A stretch of 64,000 nt of DNA from Bacteroidota bacterium (GTDB taxonomy: Bacteria > Bacteroidota > Bacteroidia > UBA4408), in NCBI GenBank assembly GCA_963169745.1, contig CAUJCU010000015.1, forward strand, positions 146,005 to 210,004. Reading direction: 5' to 3'. Positions 29,137 to 55,778 of the stretch are shown in pieces (the first letter of the stretch is position 1; each line of letters opens with the position of its first letter). The position numbers and the translations under genes are program-made. Below the pieces are notes generated by a model. It searched no databases, had not been told where the DNA came from, and saw nothing but the letters and a program-made list of their open reading frames with translations.

Positions 29137-32100
29137 GTGAAAAACTTAGAACAAAAATCAAAAGATGAATTAATTGAATACATCAAATTGCTGCAAAGCA
29201 AGATTGATAATGTAAATCTATACTTCCCCGGCTTTGGTGTAATCAATAAGTATGAGAAAATCAATACACAAACTATTGATAAGTATCGACTTATGTTTCA
29301 AAAATCTAATGATGCCATTCTGGTTCTTAAAAAAAATATAGTTACCGAATGCAATTTTAAAAGCGAAAGTGTTTTTGGAATACACAAAGAGCATATTATT
29401 GGAAAATTTCTTTATGACTTTACACCCATGATTCAGCCTGATGGGTCAAATAGTAAAGAGAAAATTCACCAGTTTTTAAAAGAGAGTAACTCCAAGCACC
29501 AACAAATTCCATTACAAATTAAGATGTTGAAAAATGGGCTCAATTTGTTTGATGCAGAACTAAATTTTTCTGAATTTACAATTGATGAAGATACCTTTGT
29601 TTATCTCGTAATTAGAGATGTTTCAGAACGGATGGAGTTAAGCCGCCAGCTTAAAGATGAGTATGAAAAACGAATTGAAGAGCAAGATTTAACCCAAAGT
29701 GGAAATTGGGAATTTAATGCCAATAATTTTGATGTTTATTGGTCACCATCAGCCTATGCCATACATGACCTTTCACGCCATATAAAAGCACCCACATTAA
29801 ATGAATATTTTGCTCAATATGTGCACCCCGATGAGCATGATATTTTGTTTCAGGCAATTCAGGAAAGTATTAGAACGGGCCATAATTTTAGTATGGACTA
29901 CAAAATTAGGACCAAAAATCAAAAAATGAAATACCTGCATGTTAAGGGCAAAGCGGTATATCAGTTAAATGGTGAGGTTGATAAAGTTGTTGGTACAGTT
30001 GTAGATATTACAGAAAGAAAATTATTGGAAATTAAACTAAATGATAGTAAAGAGCAATATCAGAATTTGATTGAAAAATTGCCTGAAGGGGTAATTATCT
30101 ACAACCTCCAAAAAATACTGTATGCCAATATTAGTGCTTTTCAAATACCTAAGGTTAACTCTCTAAAAGAAGATTGTTCAGCATATTCAATTTTTGATTT
30201 TATTTTACCTCAATATAAAAATGAAGTTGAAAGAAAAATAAAGTTCCTAATTGAAGGCAAATCATTGGGAACTGTAGAAATGAGAATAAAAAATGCAGAG
30301 GGCAAAATTATAGATATTGAGGTTAGAAGTAACCCTGTGGTTCATAATGGAGAAGTGGCCATACAGGCTATTTTTTCAGAAATAACCTATAGAAAATATG
30401 TGGAACGGAAACTTCGTGAAAGTGAGCGCAGATTGAGTACCTTAATTGGTAATTTACAAGGAATGGTGTATAGGTGCAAAAATGATCCCTCTTGGACTAT
30501 GGAGTTTGTTAGCGATGGCTGTTTAGAGCTTACAGGTTATGATAGAGAAGCCATGTTAAATAATACATCTATACATTATAGCGAATTAATTCTTGATGAA
30601 GATAGGGAATCTGTTTGGCAAAAAGTACAAGAGGCGGTTTCAGAACGAAGAGTATTTACTCTTTCTTATCGTATTAGAACAAAAAATGGAACCATAAAAT
30701 GGCTCCACGAACAGGGTAAAGGTATTTTTGATGATCAAAATAAACTTTTGGCATTGGAGGGCTTTATTACCGATGTGTCAAGAGAAAAATATGCCGAAAT
30801 TGCCTTAAAGGAAAGATATAACGATTATAAGAATATTGTTGACTTTGTACCTGAAGGAATGCTTATACATAAGCACGGAACTATTGTTTTCGCAAATCAG
30901 GTAGCGCTCGGTATTTTTGGCTATAATACCAATGATGAGTTAAAAGGCCTTTCCATGATGAATTTTATTCTTCCGGAATTCCATGAAAAAGTTAAAAAGC
31001 GTGTTGAAGGCTCTTATAAAGGAATGCCTCAAACCTTTACTGAAATTAAGGTTTATACTCGAAATGGGGGGGTATTGGAAGTAGAAACTCGAAGTATTCC
31101 ATTTGTGTATGAAAACGAACAATGTGTTTTAGTTGCAGTTCACGCTATTGATGCTCAGAAACAGCTTGCAAAAGAAACTATAAGAGCAAAATTAGCTGAG
31201 GAAGCAAATGAAGCTTTAAAAAAGGAAATAGAGCAAAAAGTGATTGCTCAAAATGAATTAATTACTTCTCAGAACTATGTAAAGAATATCATTAATAGTT
31301 CGTTGGATATGATTATTGCCTCTGATAGGAACAATAAAGTAACGGAATTCAATAAAGCTGCGCAGATTGTTTATGGCTATAAAGAAAGTGAAATTATTGG
31401 ACAAGAGTTAAGTGTTTTAACATCTGCTCCTGAGGTGCTTTTGAAGGTTCAAGATGTACTGCATAAAGAAGGATACTTCTCAGGAGAGGTACTCAATATC
31501 AGAAAAAATGGGGAATTGTTCGATTGCTTCTTAACGGCTACTTTACTGCTCAACGAAAAAGGAGAGGTAATAGGAAGCATGGGGGTTTCGCGAGATTTAA
31601 CGAAACTAAAAAAAGATCGCGAACGCTTCCATCTAAGTGAAGAAAGATATAAAGCTATTTTCAACCAAGTTTTTGTTGGAATAGCTCGTTTAGACATATC
31701 CGGAAAGTTTACCCAGGTTAACCAAAGATTTTGTACTATATTAGGATATACAGAAGAAGAATTGTTAGAGCTTTATTTTCAAGATAAAAGCGTTGAGCAT
31801 ACTGTTAATGGCTTTGAGAATTTATTGGATTATTTAATTAGGAAAAAAATCAATGACTATACATTCGAGCAAAATTATTATCATAAAGATGGTCATATTG
31901 TAAATACCCAAATAAACATTTCATTAGTATTAAGTGCCAATAACAGCCCTATGTACTTTGTATTGGTTTGTGCTGATATTACTGAAAATAAGCGAAACCA
32001 TGAATTAGCCTTAAAACAAACGGCCAAGCTAAATTCATTAATTGAGAGCAGCAATTATATGGTAATGGCAATTGATAAAAAAGAAAGGCTAACAACATTT

Positions 32101-33417
32101 AATTCCAATACCACTAAATTCATAAAAGAATTTTATGGCATAGAGGCTCTAGTGGGTTTAGAAATGACCAAAGGCTCTTTAGTATCAAGTGTTAAAGCAA
32201 ACCAGTTTTGGATTAAGAGAGTTAAAGAAACATTAAAGGGAAAATCACAGTTTTTTGAATATGTTGCTTTTGATAAAGAAGGGCAACAAAAAAACTTTGA
32301 GTTCTATCTAACCCCTGTTAGAAGTGCAGAGAACATTATTAATGAAGTTGCTATTGTTGGTTACGATATTACTGAAAAGAAAAAAATCGAAGAAAAAATT
32401 ATTAACCAAGGAGCCAAATTAAGTGCAATTTTTGAAAACAGTTCACACCAAATTTATACCATTGACAAACTTTTTAAACTAACATCTTTTAATGAGCTTT
32501 TTGCTAAAACGTTGTATAAAGATTACGGTTTGGAAGCTACACTTGGAATGAATTTAAAAAAAGAGGCTCAAGTCCAAATGCCGGTATCGTATTTTAAGAA
32601 TTTTGTAAAATTACATAAGTCTGCTTTAAAAGGGAATGCCATACGTGTAGAATCAAAAGTGAAGGATACTAAAGAGCGCACTTCATATTATATGTTTTAC
32701 TTAGATCCCATTGTTTTGCCTGATGGAAAGATCAACGAAGTTTCATATATAGCACATGATATCACAGATAAAAAATTAGCCGAAAAGAGTATTGTAGAAT
32801 CTTTAAAAGAGAAAGAAATATTACTTAAAGAAGTACATCATAGAGTTAAAAATAATTTACAAGTAATTTCGAGCATACTTAATTTGCAAAGCGCTTATCA
32901 TAAAGATAAAAATACCGTTAATTTGTTTCGCGAATTACAAAATCGGGTCAGAACCATGAGTTTTATCCATGAAAGCCTCTACCAAACGAGTGACTTTAGT
33001 AACTTGAATTTTAGAGTTTATTTGGAGAATCTCATTGCCAATTTGATGCATAGTTATATGATTGACAATAATCAAATTGAAGTACAATTTGATTGCGATA
33101 ACTTATTTCTAAATTTAGATTTTTCAATTCCATGTGGATTAATAATCAATGAGCTGATTTCAAATGCTCTAAAATATGCATTTAACGATAATCAGAAAGG
33201 GGTGATACGCATATCTGTAAAAAAGTTGAAAAATAAAGTTACGTTTGTTGTAGCCGATAACGGAAAAGGGATTGCTCCTGAAATAGATATAAGAAACACA
33301 GAAACCTTAGGGTTACAATTAGTTGTATCTCTTGTTGACCAAATTTATGGTAAACTTTTTTACAAAGATTTGAATCCCGGAACCAAAATTAAGTTTACCT
33401 TTGAACTAAAAAGCTAA
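29137..33417 (+). CDS. cytoplasmic multi-PAS/PAC sensor histidine kinase with HisKA_2-type phosphoacceptor domain and HATPase_c
   Basis: 1426 aa, no TM segments, at least 7-8 PAS/PAC-like modules (repeated ...TDITERK..., ...ITDVSREK..., ...DITEKKK..., ...DITDKKLAEK... PAC ends). The kinase core has HHRVKNNLQVISSILNLQS (HisKA_2 H-box) and the N/G boxes (NELISNALKYAF, VADNGKGI, ETLGLQLV). Confidence 0.85.
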   Translation: MKNLEQKSKDELIEYIKLLQSKIDNVNLYFPGFGVINKYEKINTQTIDKYRLMFQKSNDAILVLKKNIVTECNFKSESVFGIHKEHIIGKFLYDFTPMIQPDGSNSKEKIHQFLKESNSKHQQIPLQIKMLKNGLNLFDAELNFSEFTIDEDTFVYLVIRDVSERMELSRQLKDEYEKRIEEQDLTQSGNWEFNANNFDVYWSPSAYAIHDLSRHIKAPTLNEYFAQYVHPDEHDILFQAIQESIRTGHNFSMDYKIRTKNQKMKYLHVKGKAVYQLNGEVDKVVGTVVDITERKLLEIKLNDSKEQYQNLIEKLPEGVIIYNLQKILYANISAFQIPKVNSLKEDCSAYSIFDFILPQYKNEVERKIKFLIEGKSLGTVEMRIKNAEGKIIDIEVRSNPVVHNGEVAIQAIFSEITYRKYVERKLRESERRLSTLIGNLQGMVYRCKNDPSWTMEFVSDGCLELTGYDREAMLNNTSIHYSELILDEDRESVWQKVQEAVSERRVFTLSYRIRTKNGTIKWLHEQGKGIFDDQNKLLALEGFITDVSREKYAEIALKERYNDYKNIVDFVPEGMLIHKHGTIVFANQVALGIFGYNTNDELKGLSMMNFILPEFHEKVKKRVEGSYKGMPQTFTEIKVYTRNGGVLEVETRSIPFVYENEQCVLVAVHAIDAQKQLAKETIRAKLAEEANEALKKEIEQKVIAQNELITSQNYVKNIINSSLDMIIASDRNNKVTEFNKAAQIVYGYKESEIIGQELSVLTSAPEVLLKVQDVLHKEGYFSGEVLNIRKNGELFDCFLTATLLLNEKGEVIGSMGVSRDLTKLKKDRERFHLSEERYKAIFNQVFVGIARLDISGKFTQVNQRFCTILGYTEEELLELYFQDKSVEHTVNGFENLLDYLIRKKINDYTFEQNYYHKDGHIVNTQINISLVLSANNSPMYFVLVCADITENKRNHELALKQTAKLNSLIESSNYMVMAIDKKERLTTFNSNTTKFIKEFYGIEALVGLEMTKGSLVSSVKANQFWIKRVKETLKGKSQFFEYVAFDKEGQQKNFEFYLTPVRSAENIINEVAIVGYDITEKKKIEEKIINQGAKLSAIFENSSHQIYTIDKLFKLTSFNELFAKTLYKDYGLEATLGMNLKKEAQVQMPVSYFKNFVKLHKSALKGNAIRVESKVKDTKERTSYYMFYLDPIVLPDGKINEVSYIAHDITDKKLAEKSIVESLKEKEILLKEVHHRVKNNLQVISSILNLQSAYHKDKNTVNLFRELQNRVRTMSFIHESLYQTSDFSNLNFRVYLENLIANLMHSYMIDNNQIEVQFDCDNLFLNLDFSIPCGLIINELISNALKYAFNDNQKGVIRISVKKLKNKVTFVVADNGKGIAPEIDIRNTETLGLQLVVSLVDQIYGKLFYKDLNPGTKIKFTFELKS

Positions 33418-33428
33418 CAATATTCAAA

Positions 33429-34187
33429 ATGAGTAAAACAAATATCTTAATAGTTGAGGACGAAAGCATAGTTGCCAAAGATATTCAACACAGCCTGAAA
33501 AACCTTGGATATAATGTAGTTGGCATTGTGCCAACCGGTGAAGGTGCTGTTGCTACAGCCGTAGAAAAAACGCCAGACTTGGTGCTTATGGACATTATGT
33601 TGAAGGGCACAATGAGCGGCATAGATGCTGCCCAAGAGATAAAGGAAAAGCTTAATATCCCGGTTATATTTTTAACTGCTTATGCCGATCAAATTACTTT
33701 TAATAAAGCTAAAATTACCGAGCCTTATGGGTATCTTATTAAGCCATTTAAAGAAATTGATTTGCATACTTCAATCGAGATGGCTATTTATAAACATGAG
33801 AAAGTTAGTGATGTAGAGAAAGAAAGGGATTTTTTATATTCTCTTGTTGAAAATAAAGAATCGTCTGTAAAAGATAGTATATTTATTAGAGCCAATAGCA
33901 GATTAACAAAAGTAAAAAATAAGGATATTGTTTTTATTGAAGCCCTAAAGGATTACGTAACAGTAAATGCTATTAATACACGCTATACCATTCATAGCAC
34001 AATGAAAGATATATTAGTGAAACTTCCACCTACCGAGTTTATCAGAATTCATCGCTCTTTTATTGTACGTATTGACCGTATTGCAGCTATCGAATACCCA
34101 AATCTAATTTTAGATATAGATAAAAAGGTATTGCCTATAGGTGGCTCATACAGAAACGATTTGCTGAATAAAATTAACTTGATCTAA
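33429..34187 (+). CDS. two-component response regulator, receiver + LytTR DNA-binding domain
   Basis: Receiver motifs (ILIVEDE, DLVLMDIML, phospho-Asp in LMD, FLTA). C-terminal LytTR (FIRIHRSFIV…). 11 bp downstream of the kinase. Confidence 0.85.
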   Translation: MSKTNILIVEDESIVAKDIQHSLKNLGYNVVGIVPTGEGAVATAVEKTPDLVLMDIMLKGTMSGIDAAQEIKEKLNIPVIFLTAYADQITFNKAKITEPYGYLIKPFKEIDLHTSIEMAIYKHEKVSDVEKERDFLYSLVENKESSVKDSIFIRANSRLTKVKNKDIVFIEALKDYVTVNAINTRYTIHSTMKDILVKLPPTEFIRIHRSFIVRIDRIAAIEYPNLILDIDKKVLPIGGSYRNDLLNKINLI

Positions 34188-34779: not shown

Positions 34780-36276
34780 TTATTGTGTGCCGCTAATACG
34801 ATTTGCATTTTCTAAAATGACAAATCCATTTTCTTGATAAATTTCTTTTAAAGAGCTAAAGTTGTAGCCCATATAATCAGTTATAGGTTTCTTTTTAGAA
34901 AGTACTATATAAGCAATTTGTCCATTGTTATAGGCTTGTTTATATTTACTGTAATTAAATGGAGATAAGCGAGGTACAATTTCCTTATTTGGAATTACTA
35001 TATGACGAGCTAACATAGCGTTAATGTGGGGGTCAAAACAGAGAAAGTAGTTTCCTAGAGCAAGTTTCTTAGCCATAATTTGAGCTACCTTTTGCTTTTC
35101 ATTATATTCTTTCTTACTGGCTCTTATATTGTAATAGTACTCATGAAAAAAGCCTTGCATTAGGGCATTTCCCATTAGTGATATGATCACTACAGCAATG
35201 AATAATAATGCTGTTTGTGCAATATTCTTTCCCACATTATGAAGTGATATTTTATTCATTTGCTGGGCTGCTAATATAATTACAGCAACAATAAATTCAT
35301 TGTAGTAATTAACCCATGAACCCTCTTTAGCACTTGTAACTAGGGCAAAAACAAATAATCCAATGATATTAAAACTTAAAAATCGAACACGATCAGAACT
35401 TTCTTTTTTAAAATACAAATAAGAAAGAAAAAAGCCGCAAATAAATAGAAGCTGTGATCTAAAATACAAATTTGAGAATACTTCATAAGTACGTATCAAA
35501 GAAAAACCATTGCGAAGCCCTCTTGTGGTATTAACGAAAAAATTTTCACCATAAACACCATAAAAGGTCAAATATACAAAGCCAAATAAAAACGCTTGCA
35601 TAATACAAACTTTCAGAAATAATTTATACTCTCTGTTTAGAAGTATAAAAAAAGGTATGATAATTATAAACTGAAGCCCACTTTGCTTGACAAAAAAAGA
35701 TAGTGTTGCGAATAGCACTCCTAAATACAAGAAAATGTTTTTTTTAGGCAGACTAAAGTAGGCTATAAAACAGTACAGATATAAAACAGAAAAAAGACTG
35801 AATAGGGCATCTGGCCGAACTGCAAAATGAACTTTAGTGAGACTTATAAAATAGATTATACTAGCTATAAATGCTATTTCGTACCTTGTTTTTAGGACAG
35901 AAAACAATAGTTTATAAATAAAAATTACAGTCAGTATGTTGAACAACAGGCTTACAATTCTCCCGGTCAAATAAATCTCGTGTAAATGGTATAATGGTTT
36001 TAATCCCATTAGCTTACAAAGTAATATCGGTAAATAGTATGATAAAGGAGTATATTGTGTAATTGCAAAATTCTCAGCTTCAGGATTACTGTATAATTTC
36101 CCCCCTTCAAGCACATTGCATATACTATACACAACATTGTTTTCAACACCTCCAATATCAGCCGAATAAGAAGTAATGAGACCAATTACTAAAATTACAA
36201 ATAAAAAGGCTATGGCTTTACTATAACCTGTTATCCATTTTAATAATGGGAAGTTCTTATGCTCAGGTACTTTCAA
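34780..36276 (-). CDS. polytopic membrane protein, putative GT-C fold glycosyltransferase (ArnT/PMT/GT39-83-like)
   Basis: 498 aa, ~11-13 predicted TM helices with a loop-rich N-terminal third and a C-terminal soluble tail. Architecture resembles lipid-linked-sugar transferases. No diagnostic motif confirmed by eye. Confidence 0.4.
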   Translation of the reverse strand: MKVPEHKNFPLLKWITGYSKAIAFLFVILVIGLITSYSADIGGVENNVVYSICNVLEGGKLYSNPEAENFAITQYTPLSYYLPILLCKLMGLKPLYHLHEIYLTGRIVSLLFNILTVIFIYKLLFSVLKTRYEIAFIASIIYFISLTKVHFAVRPDALFSLFSVLYLYCFIAYFSLPKKNIFLYLGVLFATLSFFVKQSGLQFIIIIPFFILLNREYKLFLKVCIMQAFLFGFVYLTFYGVYGENFFVNTTRGLRNGFSLIRTYEVFSNLYFRSQLLFICGFFLSYLYFKKESSDRVRFLSFNIIGLFVFALVTSAKEGSWVNYYNEFIVAVIILAAQQMNKISLHNVGKNIAQTALLFIAVVIISLMGNALMQGFFHEYYYNIRASKKEYNEKQKVAQIMAKKLALGNYFLCFDPHINAMLARHIVIPNKEIVPRLSPFNYSKYKQAYNNGQIAYIVLSKKKPITDYMGYNFSSLKEIYQENGFVILENANRISGTQ

Positions 36277-36378
36277 GATACTGAAATATGGTTTAAATAC
36301 AAAGCAAATGTATAATAAATACGATGAAAAATTAAGTCTTAAATAAGACTGTCAACTTGTAAAGCAAGTTCCACAACT

Positions 36379-36954
36379 TTACATACTATGCTCTATACCT
36401 TGCACCAGTAAATGAATTATTTTAATGTGTATTTCTTGTGCCCTGTCAGAATATTTTGAGTAGGGTGCCCTAATTTCAATATCAGCCATCTCAGAAAGTT
36501 GCCCTCCGTTTTTTCCGGTAAGGGCTATTATTTTCATTTGTTTTTTTCGGGCGCATTGAACAGCTTTAAGTACATTGGCCGAGTTGCCACTAGTACTTAT
36601 AGCTAACAATATATCTCCGCTAACGCCAACTCCATCAATATAACGCGAAAAAACAGAATCAAACCCATAGTCATTGGCTGTACAAGTAATATACGCTGGG
36701 TCAGATATGGCAATAGCCGGCCACGGTTGACGGTCATCTCTGTACCGACCGGTTAGTTCTTCGGCAAAATGCATGGCATCACTCATGCTACCCCCGTTGC
36801 CACAACTAATTATTTTTTTTTGATCTTTTAATGCAGCTACCATTAAATTAACAGCATCCTCTATCAATGAAATGTTTTTAGGTTCATTTATAAAAATATT
36901 TAACAGGGCAGATGCTTCTTGTAGTTCAGTGAGTATCTGTTGTTTGATAGGCAT
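36379..36954 (-). CDS. gmhA: D-sedoheptulose-7-phosphate isomerase (GmhA, SIS domain)
   Basis: SCGNGGSMSDAMHFAEEL matches the GmhA SIS motif (GNGGSxxDAxHFAxEL); 191 aa. Confidence 0.8.
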   Translation of the reverse strand: MPIKQQILTELQEASALLNIFINEPKNISLIEDAVNLMVAALKDQKKIISCGNGGSMSDAMHFAEELTGRYRDDRQPWPAIAISDPAYITCTANDYGFDSVFSRYIDGVGVSGDILLAISTSGNSANVLKAVQCARKKQMKIIALTGKNGGQLSEMADIEIRAPYSKYSDRAQEIHIKIIHLLVQGIEHSM

Positions 36955-36967: not shown

Positions 36968-38008
36968 TTAATTTTTCATAACCCAAGCATCAGAACCTTG
37001 GGCTTTAATATTTTGAATGGTTTGTTGTGCGTCATTAAAACTATTGAAACGACCACAAGAAACTCGATACAAACCACTTGGAGAACGCTCCATTAACTGT
37101 GCTTGAATATTTTTAGTCTCCAATATTTGGATTTGCCGTTCGGCATTTTCTAATATAGAAAAACAACCCGAAATAACTATAAAATTTCCAAGTTCATTAA
37201 AAGTATTGTGTGTTGTAATAGGGGCATTCAATTGTTCAACTGCGTTTTTAGAGACATTTTCTAAATTATTTATAGCTGCGTTTGAATGTTCTGAAGTTAC
37301 AGCTTCAGCCATTTGCAAGGGCACAATTAAGGCTTCTTGAAGTTGAAACTGATGCGCATTTGGGGTGTATAACTTAACTTCTTCAGAACTATTGAAATAA
37401 CCCGATGTTTGAATGGCAATTCTGTTCTTTAAATCGGAGCCAAAAGGAGCTAAATACAATGCTAGGGCAATTGGAATCATTAATAAAGGCACAAGATACT
37501 TTTGATATACTTTTGTTTTTGACTTCTCTTTTTTAGTAGGCCGATCAATAAAAGTCTTTTCAACTTTTAAGCGTGTAGCTTCACGTTTTATAGTAGCTGA
37601 CTGAAAATTGAAGAGTCCAAATGACTCGGTATTATAGTTAACACTGTTAGATGGGAAAAATTGAATGTTTTTTTCAACATCTAACTTTAAAAAACCTGTT
37701 GAATTAATTGTAACTTTTTCACCGGTAGCAAGTAGATGCTTTATTTTAAAAACTTCTTTTTCAATAAATTCTAAAGCTTCAGGATAAGCTATAGATTCTT
37801 TTTGAGCGATATAATTAGCCAGTAAACCATCATTAACTGTGAGGCTTTTATTAAATGCAATTTGTTTGCAGGGGGCAGTAAATATATGTTGTGTAGGATG
37901 AATCTCAGCCCCTTTGTAATTTCCAACAAAACCACCAAAAGCAGGAATAATAACACAGTTGTGCTCATAAAGCAATTCGTGAATATAACTATCTATTTTT
38001 AATTCCAT
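36968..38008 (-). CDS. HU-like (HU-CCDC81-type) N-terminal domain + C-terminal SPOR domain protein
   Basis: N-terminus ELLYEHNCVIIPAFGGFVGNYKGAEIHPTQHIFTAP… resembles the HU/IHF-like DNA-binding fold found fused to SPOR in Bacteroidota. The middle has a TM/basic linker (TKKEKSKTKVYQKYLVPLLMIPIALALYL). The C-terminal SPOR is YRVSCGRFNSFNDAQQTIQNIKAQGSDAWV. Start assumed at the internal MELKID. Confidence 0.6.
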   Translation of the reverse strand: MELKIDSYIHELLYEHNCVIIPAFGGFVGNYKGAEIHPTQHIFTAPCKQIAFNKSLTVNDGLLANYIAQKESIAYPEALEFIEKEVFKIKHLLATGEKVTINSTGFLKLDVEKNIQFFPSNSVNYNTESFGLFNFQSATIKREATRLKVEKTFIDRPTKKEKSKTKVYQKYLVPLLMIPIALALYLAPFGSDLKNRIAIQTSGYFNSSEEVKLYTPNAHQFQLQEALIVPLQMAEAVTSEHSNAAINNLENVSKNAVEQLNAPITTHNTFNELGNFIVISGCFSILENAERQIQILETKNIQAQLMERSPSGLYRVSCGRFNSFNDAQQTIQNIKAQGSDAWVMKN

Positions 38009-38313
38009 ACTCCAAATATAGGTATTAATTACCAATTACAGGCTAAGAAAAAAAAGGTAGCCACCTTAACTATATGAATGGCAATAAAAACAAAAAAAAA
38101 TCGTTTTTACAATGAGGTCTATTTGTTTTAAATTTTATGATTTTGATAAAATTTTTAAACAGATGAAAGTGAGAAAAAGTGGATACGTTAAAAAAATGCA
38201 ATTTCTTTTATTTAAAGAAACAATTTTTTAAATTTGATAGTAACATTAACTAGAAAGAATAATACTTATTAGAGTATATAAAATATTTTTAACTAACCTA
38301 AAAATAAATCATC

Positions 38314-41735: not shown

Positions 41736-41904
41736 AATAAATTTCAGTATTTAAAACAAGACACAAAGGTAATTTTTTGAAAACCAATTGCAATGAAACT
41801 TGAATTAATTGTATGTCTTTAGCGATACCACGAAAATAGTAAATCATTTTTCCTAATTTTGTTTTTTCATTTCAATATCAATTAAAGTAAGAATTAATCA
41901 ATTA

Positions 41905-42825
41905 ATGATTAGAAATTTTCTATTCCATAGAGTAAACCCCAAACGCGATGCGCTATGGGATCCTATGGATGTGTCCCTTTTCGATAAGTGTGTGAAGCAT
42001 ATTTCAAATAAATATGAAACAATATTATTTGAAGAATTAGCTTTTTCGGATAACATAAATACGGCTAACCGCTATGCTACGATTATGTTTGATGATGGCT
42101 TTAAAGATAATATGGAATACGCCATTCCTATTCTTGAAAAATATAGATGCAAAGCCTCTTTTTATGTAGTTACCGATTGCATTGATAAAAATATCCCAAC
42201 ATGGACCTTCATTTTGGAGTTCTTATTCCAGTTCTCGGAAAACGAGGACTTAATACTTGATTTTGAATTTTTACTTCCTGAGCTGCGTATTAAGAAATTA
42301 GTTGGGAAAGAGGCCAAATTGAATTATGTAAAAAAATTAAAACCTTTTTTAAAGAAATTATCTGACCATGAAAGAGATAAAGTAATTAATTGCATTACTG
42401 CTTCATTTTCTGATGTTGAGCTGCCAAGAATTATGATGAATTGGGATGATTTAAAGGAAATACAAAACGCAGGGCACTACATAGGTTCTCACACACTAAG
42501 CCATCAAATGCTTGGAACCATGTCTAACTCGACCGAAATAAAAAATGAATTGCTTGGCTCCGGAAATAGAATTAAAGAAATGCTGGGCTACTTTCCACTA
42601 ACTATTTCATATCCTGTAGGGAGTTACAACGAAACCACTAAGAAAATTGCACAAGAAACAGGATACAAAATTGGATTGGCTGTAAAACAAAATATTTTCA
42701 ACCCTCAAAAGGATGATATGTTTGAAATACCAAGAATTGAACTTTATAACGAATCATGGTTTAAAACCAAATTAAGAATATCCAATACTTTAGAAAATAT
42801 AAAATCTCTAATTCGTTACAGATGA
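41905..42825 (+). CDS. polysaccharide deacetylase family (NodB-homology/CE4-like) protein
   Basis: MFDDGFKDN (TFDDG-type Asp motif), …GSHTLSHQML… His motif; 306 aa. Confidence 0.7.
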   Translation: MIRNFLFHRVNPKRDALWDPMDVSLFDKCVKHISNKYETILFEELAFSDNINTANRYATIMFDDGFKDNMEYAIPILEKYRCKASFYVVTDCIDKNIPTWTFILEFLFQFSENEDLILDFEFLLPELRIKKLVGKEAKLNYVKKLKPFLKKLSDHERDKVINCITASFSDVELPRIMMNWDDLKEIQNAGHYIGSHTLSHQMLGTMSNSTEIKNELLGSGNRIKEMLGYFPLTISYPVGSYNETTKKIAQETGYKIGLAVKQNIFNPQKDDMFEIPRIELYNESWFKTKLRISNTLENIKSLIRYR

Positions 42826-43631
42826 AAATTGTTCTTTGGATTGGAAGCCATTCGTACCAGCGGGCTTTAGCGAATAAAGTAAATGCTGATTTTGATGTTT
42901 GCGGAATAATTGTTGAAAGCAAGGCCACTCATAATAAAATTACATTTAGGAAAATCATTGATAAGCTCATTGAAAGAATATTTTTTAGTGCATTGCATAA
43001 ATCATGGACCAATTTAATCACATATTTTGATAAGCAGTTTTCGGATTATCCTGATGTGCCCATTTTGCATGTTGAGAACATTAATTGTAAAGAGGCATTT
43101 GATTTCTCATCCAACTTAAATCCCGATTTAATATTAGTTTCAGGAACAAGAATTATTAAAGAAAAAATGTTATCAGTTCAGTCCAATATTGGAATTTTAA
43201 ATTTGCATACAGGGCTCTCTCCTTATGTAAAAGGGGGGCCTAACTGCACCAATTGGTGTATTGCCACCCAGCAATTTCATTTAATAGGAAATACAATAAT
43301 GTGGATTGATGCCGGAATTGACTCGGGAAATATATTAACAACAGAGTTTACTGAGCTAAATGGCAATGAAGATTTCAGTCAAGTACATATAAAAGTAATG
43401 AACCATGCTCATGAACTATATCTCAAGGCTATTCAATATTTGGCCAAAGGGAATAAACAAAGCTTTTCTCAAAGTGTTGTAGGACATGGTAAAACCTATT
43501 ATTCAAAGAATTGGGATCTGCAAAAAAAGTTTGCTCTTATTCAAAATTTTAGTGCTTTTAAGGAATATTATAAATTAAAAAAACAAGAGCAAGAGAGACA
43601 ACTTGTTAAGGTATTTAAAATTCAGGAATAA
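42822..43631 (+). CDS. formyltransferase-family protein (Fmt/ArnA-N/sugar N-formyltransferase-like, N10-formyl-THF dependent)
   Basis: ILNLHTGLSPYVKGG corresponds to the NxHxSLLPxxRG catalytic loop. WIDAGIDSGNIL carries the conserved Asp. Overlaps the deacetylase gene by 4 nt (ATGA). Confidence 0.65.
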   Translation: MKIVLWIGSHSYQRALANKVNADFDVCGIIVESKATHNKITFRKIIDKLIERIFFSALHKSWTNLITYFDKQFSDYPDVPILHVENINCKEAFDFSSNLNPDLILVSGTRIIKEKMLSVQSNIGILNLHTGLSPYVKGGPNCTNWCIATQQFHLIGNTIMWIDAGIDSGNILTTEFTELNGNEDFSQVHIKVMNHAHELYLKAIQYLAKGNKQSFSQSVVGHGKTYYSKNWDLQKKFALIQNFSAFKEYYKLKKQEQERQLVKVFKIQE

Positions 43632-43749: not shown

Positions 43750-44055
43750 ATGAACGATAAGAGTACAATTATTATTATGAAATCAGCACTTATGTTGCTG
43801 ATTCTGTTTTCTATTTCATATATAACAATTGGAAAACTTTTGCCATCAAAAGCGCTTATAACCCACACTACATCTGCTGAAGCTACTTTAGCGGTTGAAA
43901 ATGCTGAAGTTAAAATTACAGAATCTTCTTTTGTTGATTATTTCATAACACCAAGCAGTTCGGTTCAATTTATTTCTCAATTTATTTTCTTTACCCATAG
44001 CGTAATTATTTCTTCCTTACCTCGAGAAGTTGAGTTTCCTCCTCCCGAATTTTAA
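43750..44055 (+). CDS. hypothetical ORF (101 aa) with one N-terminal hydrophobic segment; may be non-coding
   Basis: Only ORF in the 510-bp gap before the RND operon. Weak coding character. Confidence 0.2.
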   Translation: MNDKSTIIIMKSALMLLILFSISYITIGKLLPSKALITHTTSAEATLAVENAEVKITESSFVDYFITPSSSVQFISQFIFFTHSVIISSLPREVEFPPPEF

Positions 44056-44140: not shown

Positions 44141-45247
44141 ATGAAACAAATTTCGTTTGTAATAACAGCTATCTTATTTAGCATTACAACTGCATGTACA
44201 ACCCAAGAAAAACCGGAAAGTCCGGATACTTATAAAGTAGTAAAGCCCATTATAAGGGATACAGTTTACACACATGAATATATTGCTGAAATTCATGCCC
44301 TACAAAACGTTGAATTGAGAAGCAGAATAGCCGGTTTCGTTGAAAAAAATATTGCTGACGAAGGACAATCTGTTAAAGAAGGACAAGTTTTATTTATTAT
44401 CAGTGGTAGGAAGTATCAACAGGAACTTTTAAAAGCAGAAGCTGCAACTAAAAGTGCTATGGCTGAATTAAAATCAGCCGAAATTGAACTTGAAAATACG
44501 CAAAGGTTATTTGATAAGAATATTATATCAAAATCAGAACTAGAATTGTCAAAGGCTAAAATTGAAATGCGAAAAGCATCTGTTATTGAGGCCGAGGCTA
44601 ATGAAGCTCAGGCCGAATTAAATCTTTCGTACACTAAAGTTCAAGCCCCTTTTGCGGGTATAATTAATCGAATTCCAAATAAAACAGGAAGCTTGGTAGA
44701 GGAAGGAACATTACTTACCTCCATTTCTGACAGTAAGGATATGCTTGCTTATTTCAACATTTCGGAGAAAGATTATATTGATTATCTCAAAACAAAAGAT
44801 AAAAAGGAGTCGAAAGAAGTGGCTCTTGTTTTGGTAAATGGTGATGAATACGACCACTTAGGAGCAGTAGAAACAGTTGAAAGCGAGTTCGATAAATCAA
44901 CTGGGAATATTGCATTTAGAGCAAAGTTCCCTAATCCCAAAGGAATCCTTAAACATGGCTCAAGTGGCAAGATTATAGAAAAAAAACATATAAATAAGGC
45001 GCTTATTATTCCTCAAAAGTCAACATTTGAAATTCAAGATAAACTTTATGTTTTTGTTTTAAATAAAAATAATGAATTAGAGCAACGAAATATAATACCT
45101 CAAATGCGATTACCACATGTTTATATTCTTGAATCGGGCTTATCGCCTGAGGAAACAATTTTGTTTGAAGGCATACAACATGTTAGAGCCGGAGATAAAA
45201 TTATACCGGATTTTGTCAGCAATTGGCTTTTAAATATTAACCAATAA
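44141..45247 (+). CDS. RND efflux periplasmic adaptor (membrane fusion protein, HlyD family)
   Basis: Lipoprotein-type signal (ITAILFSITTACTTQ). Coiled-coil hairpin region. Beta-barrel/MP domains; 368 aa. Confidence 0.85.
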   Translation: MKQISFVITAILFSITTACTTQEKPESPDTYKVVKPIIRDTVYTHEYIAEIHALQNVELRSRIAGFVEKNIADEGQSVKEGQVLFIISGRKYQQELLKAEAATKSAMAELKSAEIELENTQRLFDKNIISKSELELSKAKIEMRKASVIEAEANEAQAELNLSYTKVQAPFAGIINRIPNKTGSLVEEGTLLTSISDSKDMLAYFNISEKDYIDYLKTKDKKESKEVALVLVNGDEYDHLGAVETVESEFDKSTGNIAFRAKFPNPKGILKHGSSGKIIEKKHINKALIIPQKSTFEIQDKLYVFVLNKNNELEQRNIIPQMRLPHVYILESGLSPEETILFEGIQHVRAGDKIIPDFVSNWLLNINQ

Positions 45248-45261: not shown

Positions 45262-48200
45262 ATGACTTCAAAATTTATTCATCGACCCGTACTATCTATT
45301 GTAATTTCAGTTCTAATTACCCTTATAGGTTTAATTTCTCTTTCGCAACTCCCGGTTACTCAATACCCCGATATAGCTCCTCCCGAAGTTAATGTAACTA
45401 CACGCTTTGTTGGTGCTAATGCTGATGCTTGTGTTAAAGCTGTTGTAATGCCTTTGGAAAGAGCCATTAACGGTGTGCCGGGTATGGCTTATATGTCTTC
45501 GGTTTCTGGAAACGATGGAACAAGTGTTATCCAAATAATATTTAAATCTGGTACAAATCCTGAAATTGCTGCCATCAACGTTCAGAACCGAGTTTCGTCT
45601 GCTCTCGATGAGCTCCCTGAAGAAGTTATAAAGCAAGGAGTTATTGTTGAAAAAGTGCAAAACAGCATGTTGCTCTATCTTAATATTTTAACTACCGACT
45701 CAACAATGGACGAAAAATTCCTTTACAATTTTGTTGATATTAATATTCTTAAAGAACTTAAACGCGTTGAAGGAGTGGGTTTTGCCGAACTACTTGGAGC
45801 ACGAGATTATGCCATGAGGGTTTGGCTAAAACCTGATAAGATGACGATGTATAACATCTCTGCAAGCGAAGTTATAGATATTCTTCGTAAACAGAATGTT
45901 GAGGCAGCTCCCGGAAAAATAGGAGAGAGTTCGGGCAAAGATGCACAAACGTTACAATATGTATTAAAATATACGGGAAAATTTAAAACTGAAGAGGCCT
46001 ATGAAAATATTGTAATTAGAAGCAATGAAACTGGTGATATACTTCGGCTGAAAGATATTGCTGAAATTGATTTTGATTCTAAAGATTATAATGTTGTTTC
46101 AAAAGAAAATGGCCGCCCTTCAGCAGCTATATTATTGAAGCAACGCCCGGGGAGTAATGCCAAAGAAGTTATTAAAAATGTGAAAGACAAAATTGCTGAA
46201 ATTAAGCAAGCTTCATTCTTACCCGGAATGGATTATACCATCAGTTATGATATTTCCCAGTTTTTAGATGCCTCTATATACGAAGTTTTGAAAACCTTAA
46301 TTGAAGCCTTTATACTTGTAGCTCTTGTTGTATTCTTGTTTCTTCAAGATACACGTTCCACTATAATTCCCATTCTTGCCGTTCCTGTTTCTCTTATTGG
46401 GACTTTCTTTTTTATGCAGCTCATGGGGTTTTCTCTAAACTTAATTACACTTTTTGCATTAGTGTTGGCAATTGGAATTGTAGTTGATAATGCTATTGTA
46501 GTAGTAGAAGCTGTGCATGCTAAAATGGAACATTCTAAACTAAACGCAAGGAGGGCAACCGAACAGGCCATGAGAGAGATTAGTGGGGCTATTATTGCAA
46601 TTACCCTGGTTATGTCGGCAGTATTCATTCCGGTAGCTTTTTTAGATGGCCCAACAGGTGTTTTTTATCGTCAGTTTTCATTAACAATGGCTGTTGCAAT
46701 TGTGTTGTCGGGGGTAACGGCTTTAACTTTAACACCTGCTCTTTGTGCCTTGTTTTTAAAAAATATGCATACTAAGGAAAAAGGGCGTAAAAATAAGTTG
46801 ACTATCTTCTTTGATAAATTTAATAATTCATATTCAAAAATTTCTGAAAAGTACCAAAAGTTGATTGCTTTAATTGCCAATCGCAGAGTGATAACATTAG
46901 GATTATTATTGGCTTTTAGTATAGGAACTGGTTTAACAAGTAGTTTTGTTCCATCTGGTTTTATCCCCGAAGAAGATCAGGGGGCTATTTATGCCAATAT
47001 TACGGCACCGCCAGGGGCTACCTTAGAACGTACTGAAAAAGCTGTTGATGAGGTGCAGAAAACGGCCTCTTCATTAGAAGCTGTTAACTCTGTTTCTGGA
47101 TTAGCCGGATTTAGTATCCTCTCAGAAGGTAACGGGGCTATTTATGGAATGAATCTTATTAACCTAAAAAACTGGAAAGAACGTAAAGAATCGGATAAAG
47201 AGATTATCCAAATATTAGAGGAAAAAACAAAGTATATTAAAGATGCTAAAATTGAATTTTTTACACCACCGCCAGTGCCTGGATATGGAAATTCAAGTGG
47301 GTTTGAATTGCGCCTCCTCGATAAGTCGGGTGTAGATGACCTTACTAAGCTTCAGAAAGTTGCTGATGATTTTGTAAGGGTTTTAAATAAACGTCCTGAA
47401 ATTAATAATGCTTTTACCACATATAACGCAAACTTTCCACAGTATTTGTTACATATTGACAAAGACAAAGCAGCTCAAAAAGGGATAACATCCGAAAATG
47501 CTATGAGTACGCTGCAAACATTAATTGGAAGTGAATATGCTACTAATTTTATTCGCTTTGGTCAAATGTATAGAGTAATGGTGCAAGCCCTTCCTGAGTA
47601 CCGCAGGCAACCGGAAGACATCTTGAAGCTCTATATAAAGAATGATTATGGAGAGATGATTCCTTTCTCCTCATTTTTAAGAATGGAAAAGGTTTATGGG
47701 GTGGAACAAATTATGCGCTATAATATGTACACAGCCGCCATGATTAATGGTCAACCCGCCCCGGGATATAGCAGCGGACAAGCTATTCAGGCAATAAAAG
47801 AAGCCGCAAAAGAAGCCCTGCCTAAGAGTTATGGTTATGATTGGTCAGGATCATCGCGCGACCAAGCAAATACGGGCAATCAAGCTATTGGTATTTTTGC
47901 AATATGCCTGTTATTTGTTTATTTATTGTTGGCTGCACAATACGAAAGTTTTTTATTGCCATTTGCTGTAATACTTTCTTTACCGGCAGGGATATTTGGC
48001 TCTTTCCTTTTTCTTATGCTGTTAGGACTCGAAAACAACATCTACGCCCAAATTGCTATGATTATGCTCATTGGTATTTTAGGTAAAAATGCTATCCTAA
48101 TTATCGAATTTGCAATTATGAAAAATCAAGGCGGTGCTTCCATATTACAGGCAACTATGTCAGGAGCTGCTGAGCGGCTAAGGCCTATCTTAATGACTTC

Positions 48201-48420
48201 TTTTGCATTTGTTGCAGGACTTATTCCCTTAATGATTGCAAATGGGGCCGGAGAAATAGGAAATAATACCATTGGCGCAGCTGCTGTTGGAGGAATGCTT
48301 CTTGGAACCATTTTTGGAGTTGTTATCATTCCGGGCTTGTATTTTATTTTTGCTTCAATTGCTGAAAAGTTAAATAAAAGAAAACGCAAAAAATTAAAAC
48401 CTTACTCAGAAACAATTTAA
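45262..48420 (+). CDS. RND efflux transporter permease, AcrB/HAE1 family
   Basis: 1052 aa, 12 TM helices with two large periplasmic loops. Classic start MTSKFIHRPVLSIVISVLITLIGLISL. Confidence 0.9.
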   Translation: MTSKFIHRPVLSIVISVLITLIGLISLSQLPVTQYPDIAPPEVNVTTRFVGANADACVKAVVMPLERAINGVPGMAYMSSVSGNDGTSVIQIIFKSGTNPEIAAINVQNRVSSALDELPEEVIKQGVIVEKVQNSMLLYLNILTTDSTMDEKFLYNFVDINILKELKRVEGVGFAELLGARDYAMRVWLKPDKMTMYNISASEVIDILRKQNVEAAPGKIGESSGKDAQTLQYVLKYTGKFKTEEAYENIVIRSNETGDILRLKDIAEIDFDSKDYNVVSKENGRPSAAILLKQRPGSNAKEVIKNVKDKIAEIKQASFLPGMDYTISYDISQFLDASIYEVLKTLIEAFILVALVVFLFLQDTRSTIIPILAVPVSLIGTFFFMQLMGFSLNLITLFALVLAIGIVVDNAIVVVEAVHAKMEHSKLNARRATEQAMREISGAIIAITLVMSAVFIPVAFLDGPTGVFYRQFSLTMAVAIVLSGVTALTLTPALCALFLKNMHTKEKGRKNKLTIFFDKFNNSYSKISEKYQKLIALIANRRVITLGLLLAFSIGTGLTSSFVPSGFIPEEDQGAIYANITAPPGATLERTEKAVDEVQKTASSLEAVNSVSGLAGFSILSEGNGAIYGMNLINLKNWKERKESDKEIIQILEEKTKYIKDAKIEFFTPPPVPGYGNSSGFELRLLDKSGVDDLTKLQKVADDFVRVLNKRPEINNAFTTYNANFPQYLLHIDKDKAAQKGITSENAMSTLQTLIGSEYATNFIRFGQMYRVMVQALPEYRRQPEDILKLYIKNDYGEMIPFSSFLRMEKVYGVEQIMRYNMYTAAMINGQPAPGYSSGQAIQAIKEAAKEALPKSYGYDWSGSSRDQANTGNQAIGIFAICLLFVYLLLAAQYESFLLPFAVILSLPAGIFGSFLFLMLLGLENNIYAQIAMIMLIGILGKNAILIIEFAIMKNQGGASILQATMSGAAERLRPILMTSFAFVAGLIPLMIANGAGEIGNNTIGAAAVGGMLLGTIFGVVIIPGLYFIFASIAEKLNKRKRKKLKPYSETI

Positions 48421-48427: not shown

Positions 48428-49858
48428 ATGAAGAGAGTTTATAAAACCATTTTTACATTATTTTTCGTACAGTCAATCTTAGCTTGTAAAACGCCAAAGC
48501 CGGGAGTAGTAAATGCTAAGATAAAATTGCCATCAAATTATGAACTGCTTCCTGATTCAAATAACATCTCAAAAATTAATTGGAGAAGTTATCTAGGAGA
48601 TCCTATATTAATTAGTCTTATTGATACTGCAATAAAAAATAATCTGGACCATAAAATTGCTATGCAGAGAATTGCAATAGCCCAATCATGGGTTCGTATG
48701 GCAAAAGGAGAAATGTTCCCCAAGGTGTATGGCAATGTAGGTATAGGTAGCAACAAGTATGCTCAATACACACAAGAGAATTTAGGAAATTCAAGTACCG
48801 AATACCAGCCCGGAAAAACAATTCCTAATCCTTTACCCGATATTTATACAGGATTAGCATCAAGTTGGGAAATAAACTTATGGGGCAAAGTACGCAGTAA
48901 ACGAAAAGGATTTCAACAACGCTTTTGGGCAAGTATTGAAGGGAAAAAGCTTGTACTATCTAATGTAATTGAAGAATTAACATTGAATTACTTTGAGTTA
49001 CTTGCATTAGACAGAGAGCAGGCTATAATAAACCAAACACTCTTAAAGCAAGAAGAAGCATTAGAAGTAGTGAAGATTCAGAAAGAAACAGGACGCACAA
49101 ATGAGTTAGCTGTACAGCAATTTAATGCCCAGCTCCTAAGTACTCAAGCTTTAGAGAAGGAGATTTCACAAAAGATTATAGAAACAGAAAACAGAGTAAA
49201 CTTTTTATTGGGTAGGTTGCCTCAGAAAATAGAGAGAACAAGTACTTCTTTATTTCAAGATAACTCTGAATTGGTGCTGTCTGGTGTTCCTGCTCAACTA
49301 CTCGTAAACCGCCCCGACATTAAAGAAGCAGAATATGCACTTAATGCAACATACTTTGATTTACAAGTAGCCCGATCGGCTTTTTTTCCTACAATTAATT
49401 TAGCAAGTGCCATCGGTTTTCAATCATTTAATCCACAGTTCTTGTTAAACGTTCCTGCATCTCTTGGCTATTCTATATCTGGAGCTCTTCTAGCTCCTTT
49501 GGTTAATAGAAGTGCTATACAATCTCATTTTAAAACTGCCCAGTCTGAACAACTTACGGCTCTGTACCAATACCAAAAAACGATTATTTATGCCTATGCA
49601 GAAGTACTTTCTGAGCTCTCAAATAAAAAACATTTAGAGACAATTTTTGAACTTAAAAAGGAGCAAAATAGAATACTAGAAAATGCTGTGCAAACTTCAA
49701 GCGAGCTATACCGAACCGTTAAGGCAAATTATCTTGAGGTATTATTAGCCCAGCAAAACTCCTTACAGGCAGAAATTGAACTTATAGAAGTTGCAAAACG
49801 AAAGAAGGTAGCAACAATTAAACTATATAAAGTTTTGGGCGGTGCATGGGTAAATTAA
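48428..49858 (+). CDS. efflux outer-membrane factor (TolC/NodT family)
   Basis: Signal peptide, two-repeat TolC-like helical/barrel pattern, 476 aa. Third gene of the adaptor-pump-OMF operon. Confidence 0.85.
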   Translation: MKRVYKTIFTLFFVQSILACKTPKPGVVNAKIKLPSNYELLPDSNNISKINWRSYLGDPILISLIDTAIKNNLDHKIAMQRIAIAQSWVRMAKGEMFPKVYGNVGIGSNKYAQYTQENLGNSSTEYQPGKTIPNPLPDIYTGLASSWEINLWGKVRSKRKGFQQRFWASIEGKKLVLSNVIEELTLNYFELLALDREQAIINQTLLKQEEALEVVKIQKETGRTNELAVQQFNAQLLSTQALEKEISQKIIETENRVNFLLGRLPQKIERTSTSLFQDNSELVLSGVPAQLLVNRPDIKEAEYALNATYFDLQVARSAFFPTINLASAIGFQSFNPQFLLNVPASLGYSISGALLAPLVNRSAIQSHFKTAQSEQLTALYQYQKTIIYAYAEVLSELSNKKHLETIFELKKEQNRILENAVQTSSELYRTVKANYLEVLLAQQNSLQAEIELIEVAKRKKVATIKLYKVLGGAWVN

Positions 49859-53861: not shown

Positions 53862-54060
53862 CTTTAAATCGGGAAACAACCTATTACGCTATAGTGGTAT
53901 GGGCTTTCAAATGGGAGCCATTATTTTTTTAGGAGCATGGGTAGGTTTAAAACTTGATGCCTGGCTTCACATCACAAACAAATTATTTACCGCTGTACTA
54001 ACCATATTGGCTGTGTTTGTTGCACTTTACTTTTCCATTAAAGATTTCATAAAAAAGTAG
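53818..54060 (+). CDS. AtpZ/AtpI-family small membrane protein (putative)
   Basis: …LRYSGMGFQMGAIIFLGAWVGLKLDAWL… resembles the AtpZ two-TM signature. The annotated start overlaps the bactofilin end by 44 nt. The true start may be the internal Met at ~53899. Confidence 0.45.
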   Translation: MPSKEEIKKSKKQPDFKSGNNLLRYSGMGFQMGAIIFLGAWVGLKLDAWLHITNKLFTAVLTILAVFVALYFSIKDFIKK

Positions 54061-54068
54061 CCTCTCTT

Positions 54069-54446: not shown

Positions 54447-54456
54447 GTTGTTTTTT
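54434..54456 (+). terminator. rho-independent terminator overlapping the stop codon of 54069..54446
   Basis: AAAACAACC-tta-GGTTGTTTT perfect 9-bp stem with 3-nt loop followed by TTTTAATT. Confidence 0.6.
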
Positions 54457-55695: not shown

Positions 55696-55778
55696 CGGGC
55701 TTTAAAAAAGAATAAAATTTTGATAAAAGCCTCTCAACAAATTACGAGGCCATTTGTGAAAGAATAACAATTTAAATT

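Follow-up and report, generated by a model that had tools for sequence, protein, structure and literature searches.

The locus

In the 64,000-nucleotide stretch of Bacteroidota DNA that was analysed here (the window), both the ORF list and the sequence itself place two open reading frames on the forward strand. ORF1 (positions 41905-42825) encodes a CE4 deacetylase of 306 aa and ORF2 (42822-43631) a formyltransferase of 269 aa. The first-pass annotation had described two overlapping genes for a CE4/NodB-type deacetylase and a formyltransferase of about 270 aa, which agrees exactly with the ORF list and with the Pfam assignments. The genes are translationally coupled through an ATGA start/stop overlap on the same strand (42822-42825). 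Direct reading of the sequence places the stop codon TGA of ORF1 at 42823-42825 and the ATG of ORF2 at 42822-42824.

Using a pattern search, we found a candidate promoter, TAATTTTG, at positions 41854..41861 of the forward strand, 44 nt 5' of the deacetylase start codon. It matches TAnnTTTG, which we take to be the -7 promoter element of Bacteroidota. The motif is not enriched in the whole window (121 matches vs 105 +/- 10 expected), so that TAATTTTG is compatible with a promoter and is possibly that of the two-gene unit. The same search placed a second TAnnTTTG just 5' of a 101-aa ORF downstream of the pair. This would fit separate transcription units for the pair and for the 101-aa ORF/RND side, a weak indication given that the motif is unenriched. 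A scan for sigma-70 promoters and terminators gave no more sites than were found in shuffled sequence. Moreover, no Rfam family, no riboswitch or other RNA and no meaningful repeat was detected between 41500 and 44300.

The pair had been described as lying immediately upstream of an RND efflux operon. The operon does follow, with genes for the membrane-fusion protein (MFP, 44141-45247), the RND pump (45262-48420) and the outer-membrane factor (OMF, 48428-49858), but a gap of 509 nt holding the 101-aa ORF separates it from the transferase gene. On the other side, 5' of the pair and on the opposite strand, are the housekeeping genes for malic enzyme, QueG, a SPOR-domain protein and a SIS-domain protein. 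No aminotransferase or glycosyltransferase gene adjoins the pair in the window, as had been noted before. A search for plasmid homologs returned none.

The deacetylase

ORF1 carries the previously noted sequences MFDDGFKDN and HTLSH and matches Polysacc_deac_1 (PF01522) in Pfam with 93 bits vs a cut-off of 23.1 (E=1.8e-26). Motif 1 corresponds to FDDG (D63/D64) and motif 2 to HTLSH (H196/H200), and both align with PplD, PgaB and 6go1. These four residues are invariant across 22 homologs, as is H8 in the N-terminal FHRV, which by analogy with PgaB is presumably the catalytic acid. The residues expected of a CE4 enzyme are thus in place, with an Asp as catalytic base, an Asp-His-His metal-binding set and a His as putative acid; a loss of the catalytic Asp and His residues, named earlier as an argument against a deacetylase, is not observed. 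The fold is closest to the PgaB/IcaB/PplD subclass, including the arrangement of the N-terminal His strand, and we predict that ORF1 is a cytoplasmic CE4 (NodB-homology) N-deacetylase of this class.

PgaB, IcaB and PplD work outside the cytoplasm, as secreted or periplasmic enzymes, and their substrates are finished polymers. Unlike these, ORF1 has no signal peptide, contains an insertion of about 70 residues between motif 1 and motif 2, and has a cytoplasmic folate enzyme as its coupled partner. The protein starts with MIRNFLFHRV, and with the first barrel strand (strand 1) beginning at residue 2 there is no room for a signal peptide. The extracytoplasmic marks of the subclass, a signal peptide or lipoprotein and an exported polymer, are therefore not those of ORF1. 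The scores for the equivalog models of PgaB (39.7 vs a cut-off of 321.9) and IcaB (35.8 vs 248) are also low, and comparison with ArnD revealed no specific similarity in sequence or fold. The long-insertion cytoplasmic CE4 enzymes would form a subclass of their own.

The formyltransferase

ORF2 contains the catalytic loop NLHTGLSPYVKGG that had been recognised at first, and it matches Formyl_trans_N (PF00551, E=1.3e-9) in Pfam over residues 95-204 only. The putative catalytic triad Asn-His-Asp (N127/H129/D167) of PF00551 is conserved. ORF2 is accordingly predicted to be a stand-alone N10-formyl-THF-type formyltransferase of an uncharacterised family, and the triad together with an SLLP-like loop (GLSPY) points to N10-formyl-THF as the donor. 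The Rossmann-like half carries a two-helix insertion at about residues 33-75, and a short helical tail stands at the C-terminus where Fmt and ArnA have their C-domain. Two motifs, GPNCTNWC and Q217...G223..YY..W231, are invariant and specific to the family. From their sequences, both proteins of the pair appear to be cytoplasmic with intact catalytic residues.

When compared with ArnA-N, the sugar N-formyltransferases and Fmt, the classes between which the transferase had been left, ORF2 reached none of the equivalog cut-offs. It scored 39.7 bits against the Fmt model TIGR00460 (cut-off 201.5) and 38.9 against that of PurN (cut-off 150.1). The alignment to Fmt is limited to residues 87-226, not end to end as would befit a paralog, and Pfam finds no match in ORF2 to the tRNA-binding C-terminal domain, Formyl_trans_C. 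On the HMM cut-offs and the domain architecture, we reject ORF2 as an Fmt or PurN paralog.

Against the ArnA model PRK08125, ORF2 reached 35.9 bits (cut-off 777), and in PDB profile comparison its similarity to ArnA (E = 1e-4 to 1e-3) was weaker than that to Fmt, WlaRD and PurN. The equivalog similarity, the C-terminal subdomain and the fused decarboxylase by which the ArnA N-terminal domain would be recognised are all lacking in the 269-aa protein. On the basis of HMM scores, PDB profile comparison and fold comparison, we reject orthology of the pair to ArnD/ArnA.

Known sugar N-formyltransferases act on 3- or 4-amino-dideoxy sugars. The score of ORF2 against PRK07579, a dTDP-4-amino-4,6-dideoxyglucose formyltransferase, is 33.8 bits (cut-off 238); the E-values for characterised sugar N-formyltransferases in the PDB (about 1e-8) are no better than those for Fmt and PurN. 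ORF2 reaches no equivalog model of this group (WlaRD, FdtF, VioF, WbkC, PseJ and the dTDP-Qui3N N-formyltransferase 7n7a). It is set apart by the two-helix insertion in its N-terminal half and by its own GPNCTNWC, and its partner is a deacetylase, whereas theirs is a DegT aminotransferase.

Conservation of the gene pair in Bacteroidota

A genome scan identified 267 loci that encode relatives of the transferase, of which 80 were retained. All 80 are from Bacteroidota bins or isolates, namely Chitinophagales, Sphingobacteriales, Crocinitomicaceae, Cytophagales and some Flavobacteriaceae. Cultivable carriers of the pair are Ferruginibacter lapsinanis (P0173), Ferruginibacter sp. SUN106 (L046), Brumimicrobium aurantiacum N62 (L047) and Hymenobacter guriensis BT594 (L068). 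The deacetylase gene is located directly 5' of the transferase gene in 75 of the 80 loci. Of the remaining five, three are cut off by a contig end, and only L006 and L044 truly lack the deacetylase. Among the 67 loci where the overlap could be measured, 58 retain the identical 4 nt, in keeping with the coupling read in the window. With 75 of 80 loci paired and this overlap so often retained, the pairing is far beyond chance and the two genes are a conserved unit. In a mirror-tree comparison of pairwise distances, deacetylase and transferase gave r=0.71 (64 pairs).

The other neighbours in the window recur in just one or two of the 80 loci. Genes for MFP, RND and OMF proteins were found beside the pair in none of them, so that the adjacency to the efflux operon is incidental, and we reject a functional link between the pair and the pump. 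Pterin-synthesis genes and a gene for S-adenosylhomocysteine hydrolase are present near the pair in some loci. We searched for published accounts of such a pair in Bacteroidetes or in EPS clusters and found none.

Glycan genes around related pairs

Within 7 kb of the pair, 29 of the 80 loci have at least two recurrent genes of the GT1/GT2, AsnB-like, Wzx, epimerase, PglD-like or MBOAT type. Loci with the pair inside polysaccharide clusters are mostly deeper-branching, and in the crown clade containing the window the pair is mostly stand-alone with varied housekeeping neighbours. Altogether, more than half of the loci, that of the window among them, have a stand-alone pair. The recurrent gene order is GT2, a 254-aa protein of unknown function, deacetylase, transferase, AsnB-like protein, a 446-aa polytopic membrane protein, GT1 and epimerase. 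Further genes in these clusters encode PglD-like acetyltransferases, FkbM methyltransferases, Wzx flippases, ABC-2 exporters, MBOAT and acyltransferase-3 proteins, and UDP-galactopyranose mutase; a polyprenyl-P-type GT2 (cluster c55) occurs in three of the 80 loci. When the cluster partners (AsnB, the 446-aa membrane protein, GT1 and c13) were sought in the window, the sole match was an unrelated epimerase at 26447-27424.

The AsnB-like neighbour is best matched by TIGR03108 (eps_aminotran_1; E=9e-165, below the cut-off), a family in which the uronamide-forming WbpS has been placed (PMC7468200). A uronic-acid target was considered on this ground. A UDP-sugar dehydrogenase gene is present within 10 kb in only one of the 80 loci, which gives no linkage support, and such a target is for this reason not established.

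Genes for DegT sugar aminotransferases, searched with a probe that was validated by Pfam (E=3.7e-83), are present in only four of the 80 loci, at a distance of about 9 kb. The coupled deacetylase is thus the sole linked source of an amine for the transferase. The nonulosonic-acid genes NeuB, NeuA and NeuC are absent near the pair in all 80 Bacteroidota loci, and no association with arnB-, arnC- or arnT-type genes was seen among them.

Distant subfamilies and archaea

In an exhaustive profile search with the transferase, relatives clustered at 50% identity amounted to 96 clusters for E<=1e-30 and 1344 for E<=1e-10, and nearly all of them are about 265-285 aa long. Among the best 150 representatives there was no fusion of deacetylase and formyltransferase. 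The long proteins among them are a fusion of the transferase with a GT2 glycosyltransferase (P0387), one with an unknown partner, and a probable chimera with RNase HII.

We looked for the CE4 partner in five more transferase subfamilies, which are 26-32% identical to the transferase of the window. The P0351 group includes a Candidatus Nitrosotenuis genome. Six of its seven distinct contexts (L084-L088 and L091-L093) have the CE4 gene directly 5', at gaps of -22 to +2 nt, and in the seventh (L089/90) it is divergent with one gene between. The 4-nt overlap is also found in the archaeal relatives L087 and L093. Four of these seven archaeal contexts are nonulosonic-acid clusters with NeuB, CTP_transf_3 and Epimerase_2, that is, with genes for NeuB, a CMP-transferase and a hydrolysing 2-epimerase, along with 4,6-dehydratase-type enzymes and a nucleotidyltransferase; a DegT gene is visible at the edge of L087. 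In P0383 (L096), P0333 (L097) and P0357 (L098), the CE4 gene is directly upstream and the pair is located among glycosyltransferases, with a PMT_2 protein nearby in L097. In P0346 (L095), the CE4 gene is three genes away, within a Wzy/Wzx/AsnB/GT cluster.

Every directly coupled CE4 enzyme has a spacing of 111-144 residues between the two motifs (133 in the window) and carries the N-terminal His motif, whereas the unlinked CE4 of L095 has the canonical spacing of 54. The archaeal enzyme aligns with the deacetylase of the window through the insertion (26% identity, E=4e-14). The pairing thus appears to be much older than the Bacteroidota, and since pairing and spacing are kept across subfamilies, this CE4 subclass and the transferase family seem to have travelled together over very large evolutionary distances. 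In being located in glycan clusters, in 29 of the 80 Bacteroidota loci and in nearly all loci of the distant subfamilies, the transferase resembles the sugar N-formyltransferases.

A possible exchange of acetyl for formyl groups

Overall, the pair is most likely a member of an uncharacterised, widespread deacetylase-formyltransferase cassette for the editing of glycan N-acyl groups. Since the pair stands alone in most genomes, its two activities must make chemical sense together, and with two enzymes alone, a net chemical change results only if they act in sequence. We propose, with a probability of about 0.5, that the cassette swaps N-acetyl for N-formyl on a surface-glycan amino sugar. The cytoplasmic CE4 enzyme would first strip the N-acetyl group from a GlcNAc-derived sugar, either nucleotide-activated or undecaprenyl-linked, leaving a free amine; the fold class, the intact metal-binding and acid/base residues and the lack of a signal peptide suggest this step. 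The coupled transferase would then formylate the freed amine with N10-formyl-tetrahydrofolate, as the conserved Asn-His-Asp triad and formyltransferase fold indicate. The net outcome would be the exchange of an acetamido for a formamido group, and the formamido sugar could enter a polysaccharide, LPS or glycoprotein glycan via glycosyltransferases encoded elsewhere in the genome. In about one third of the related Bacteroidota, and in Thaumarchaeota, glycan genes adjoin the cassette. The analysis shows the genes and their coupling, the catalytic residues, the fold classes, how deeply the pair is conserved and that related pairs lie in glycan clusters, whereas reaction order, identity of the nitrogen, formyl donor and substrate are what we infer within this model; CE4 enzymes could in principle also hydrolyse a formamide, which would allow another order of action.

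A precedent comes from the Wbp/Vim pathway of Bacteroidota (Porphyromonas, Tannerella), for which it has been proposed that the cytoplasmic CE4 enzyme VimE takes off the 2-N-acetyl group, freeing the 2-amine before VimA re-acylates it (PMC7468200). The Wbp/Vim loci also contain an AsnB-like amidotransferase of the eps_aminotran_1 type and glycosyltransferases, as do the surroundings of related pairs. VimA, however, is a FemAB-like aminoacyl transferase, whereas the re-acylating enzyme of the pair is a formyltransferase, and the pair is not linked to Wbp genes, to a DegT aminotransferase or to a UDP-sugar dehydrogenase. A VimE-like role of the deacetylase would be an analogy with a proposed function. 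The same logic is known from NodB/NodA and from heparan sulfate NDST, where an N-deacetylase is followed by N-acylation or N-sulfation. These systems serve as an analogy only, since the second enzyme is a fatty-acyl or sulfo transferase unrelated to formyltransferases and the substrates are chito-oligosaccharides or heparan.

Several points speak against an exchange. The closest structural relatives of the deacetylase work extracellularly on polymers and not in the cytoplasm, and no glycan genes adjoin the pair in the window. To our knowledge, all characterised sugar N-formyltransferases use 3- or 4-amines made by aminotransferases and not 2-amines derived from deacetylation. On the other hand, 2-formamido sugars such as GalNFmA are constituents of O-antigens (PMC4773840).

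Alternative explanations

The legionaminic-acid cluster of Ca. Kuenenia stuttgartiensis contains adjacent deacetylase and formyltransferase genes, and N-formylated CMP-nonulosonic acids were detected by mass spectrometry, with one free amine and one formyl group; the authors concluded that editing occurs at the nucleotide-sugar level (bioRxiv 10.64898/2026.04.20.719630). This pair, which we liken to ours by gene names only, is placed in a nonulosonic-acid cluster as are the archaeal relatives, but the Bacteroidota pairs lie outside such clusters, and the Kuenenia product retains a free amine. We count this cluster as a precedent for an exchange, but its product would fit equally well with two enzymes acting on different nitrogens, which counts against one. 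In such an editing of a diamino sugar at two sites, the transferase would formylate an amine made by an unlinked aminotransferase, replacing an N-acetyltransferase, and the deacetylase would free the other amine from the GlcNAc-derived acetyl group. One N-formyl group and one free, positively charged NH2 would result, which matches the Kuenenia composition exactly (bioRxiv 10.64898/2026.04.20.719630).

An aminotransferase is required by the nonulosonic-acid pathways in whose clusters archaeal relatives occur, and the DegT gene at the edge of L087 agrees with this. PseJ, WbkC and similar sugar N-formyltransferases act on aminotransferase-derived amines, which we also count in favour of two sites. 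In the Bacteroidota, however, DegT genes are found within 10 kb in only those four loci and NeuB, NeuA and NeuC in none, and most pairs, like that of the window, stand alone. Moreover, two successive reactions at a single nitrogen would account more readily for the strict 1:1 coupling and the co-evolution. Hence we regard editing at two sites as unlikely overall, although it is plausible for the archaeal nonulosonic-acid clusters and less so for the Bacteroidota.

A substrate other than a glycan (a lipid, a peptide or a small metabolite such as an N-acetylated amine that is formylated for RND export), or a role as a one-carbon, Fmt or PurN paralog, is suggested by incidental neighbours only, namely the RND operon and, in some loci, the pterin-synthesis and S-adenosylhomocysteine hydrolase genes. 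We consider this quite improbable. RND genes never accompany the pair among the 80 loci, and in the window the gap and the separate TAnnTTTG motif stand between pair and operon. Every informative context in six divergent subfamilies is one of glycan biosynthesis, and P0387 joins the transferase to a GT2 glycosyltransferase in a single protein. A paralog is contradicted by the Fmt and PurN scores given above and by the missing Fmt C-domain.

In the lipid A aminoarabinose pathway, ArnA and ArnD combine, as the pair does, a formyltransferase and a CE4 fold that act on one amino sugar at the cytoplasmic side, and it was this logic that the first-pass annotation had seen in the pair. The transferase would in that case formylate an amino sugar nucleotide, pulling an unfavourable transamination, and the CE4 enzyme would deformylate it after transfer to a lipid carrier to give a free amine. 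A 498-aa membrane protein encoded 5.6 kb upstream in the window (34780-36276) has a weak match to PMT_2 (ArnT-like GT-C; E=5e-4, below the cut-off), and a PMT_2 protein is also near the pair in L097; we rejected the 498-aa protein as an ArnT-like partner, as its match is sub-threshold and it is linked to the pair in none of the 80 loci. With the intervening steps and partners missing, transient protection would be a futile cycle, and given the PRK08125 score, the lack of ArnD similarity and the lack of arn-type genes, we consider it similarly improbable. Of the first interpretation, the deacetylase/formyltransferase pair has thus been retained and an amino-sugar substrate is favoured, while the Arn logic and the link to efflux have been abandoned.

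Significance

The enzyme kinds of the pair are known. New are their obligatory coupling, the insertion-bearing cytoplasmic CE4 subclass and the proposed aminotransferase-independent route to formamido sugars. Two uncharacterised families would thereby be defined, a transferase family of about 96 clusters (50% identity, E<=1e-30) and the long-insertion CE4 subclass. Members of both are found in Bacteroidota that are abundant in fresh water and soil, and also in ammonia-oxidising archaea of the sea.

O-antigens, capsules, and flagellin or S-layer glycans carry formamido sugars as antigenic determinants. We know of no assigned biosynthesis for those that derive from N-acetyl precursors. If an exchange of acetyl for formyl groups is true, the coupling of a formyltransferase to a deacetylase would open a second route to formamido sugars, one that needs no aminotransferase, and the two enzymes would be candidates for the formation of GalNFmA-like residues and N-formyl nonulosonic acids. 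More tentatively, and with some doubt, the insertion-bearing CE4 enzyme and the transferase of about 265 aa may be an ancient, mobile and hitherto unrecognised module of Bacteria and Archaea that provides a general route from N-acetyl precursors to formamido sugars, with 2-formamido hexoses and uronic acids and 5-N-formyl nonulosonic acids as products. Stand-alone pairs such as that of the window would then edit a GlcNAc-derived housekeeping precursor of the envelope, and an N-formylglucosamine-type residue would be a constitutive, unnoticed part of the LPS, an O-glycan or the cell wall.

Genomic context of related pairs

In five loci from Sphingobacteriaceae bins (L012, L013, L039, L040 and L049), the deacetylase-formyltransferase pair stands alone, and we considered its flanks over about 4 kb on the upstream side and 2 kb on the downstream side. 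The upstream flank encodes GTP cyclohydrolase I together with one or two 6-pyruvoyl-tetrahydropterin synthases; four of the five loci have two copies of the latter gene. A class-V aminotransferase whose N-terminus resembles a Tat signal lies on the downstream side in the same loci. Moreover, S-adenosylhomocysteine hydrolase adjoins the pair in three further loci. These neighbours could tie pterin and one-carbon supply to the folate-dependent enzyme, or could reflect mere synteny within the lineage.

A different setting was found on archaeal-type contigs. In four Thaumarchaeota-like metagenome contigs (L084, L087, L091 and L093) the cassette lies inside complete nonulosonic-acid clusters, which comprise NeuB, a CMP-transferase, a 2-epimerase, dehydratases and methyltransferases. 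On two others, L086 and L088, it is instead paired with an MptE-like protein and a B12-binding radical SAM enzyme.

The deacetylase gene does not appear intact in every locus. In L026 it is divided into two ORFs, with the break around the HTxxH motif, and in L017 and L079 it is present solely as a C-terminal fragment at a contig end. Frameshift pseudogenes could explain these forms, as could sequencing errors in the metagenome bins.

Surroundings of the pair in the window

On the 5' side of the pair, neighbouring genes on the minus strand (34780-36954) encode a 498-aa polytopic membrane protein and a 191-aa SIS-domain protein, which we take to be phosphoheptose-isomerase-like. The sole family match of the membrane protein was PMT_2 (ArnT/GT-C-like), at a sub-threshold E-value of 5e-4. 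The two genes may represent a separate envelope-glycan module, and none of the 80 related loci links them to the pair.

A 101-aa ORF (43750-44055, plus strand) whose N-terminus is hydrophobic separates the formyltransferase gene from the RND operon; it is annotated as a gene on contigs of the same species. A pattern search placed a TAnnTTTG motif at 43735, 5' of this ORF. Family searches with Pfam and HMM models gave zero matches for the ORF, and no counterpart was found across the 80 related loci.

Further upstream in the window, a sugar-nucleotide gene pair consists of an epimerase/dehydratase gene (26447-27424) and a phosphomannomutase-like gene (27436-28845). An IS110/IS116/IS902-family transposase ORF (24743-25774, minus strand; Transposase_20, E=1.5e-11) sits between this gene pair and the upstream genes. 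At 29137-34187 on the plus strand, a LytTR-type response regulator comes after a very large multi-PAS histidine kinase of 1426 aa. Two SPOR proteins are encoded as well, namely a giant ORF of 2045 aa (635-6772, plus strand), in which only a PD40 repeat and the C-terminal SPOR domain were recognised, and a protein with CCDC81-like HU domains (36968-38035). The lowest GC content of the window (0.286 vs about 0.35) was found at 54001-56000, a stretch containing an ECF-type sigma factor gene (54668-55270).

A fused relative of the formyltransferase

The exhaustive profile search also returned P0268, a 960-aa protein that is closely related to the formyltransferase (244 bits) and carries the NLHTGLSPYVKGAPNCTNWC motif. 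Its formyltransferase part is fused to about 700 residues without a Pfam match; the family thus has an uncharacterised fusion partner. The Ala/Arg-rich sequence of P0268 suggests a high-GC source organism, and such an origin would mean that the formyltransferase family reaches past Bacteroidota and Archaea.
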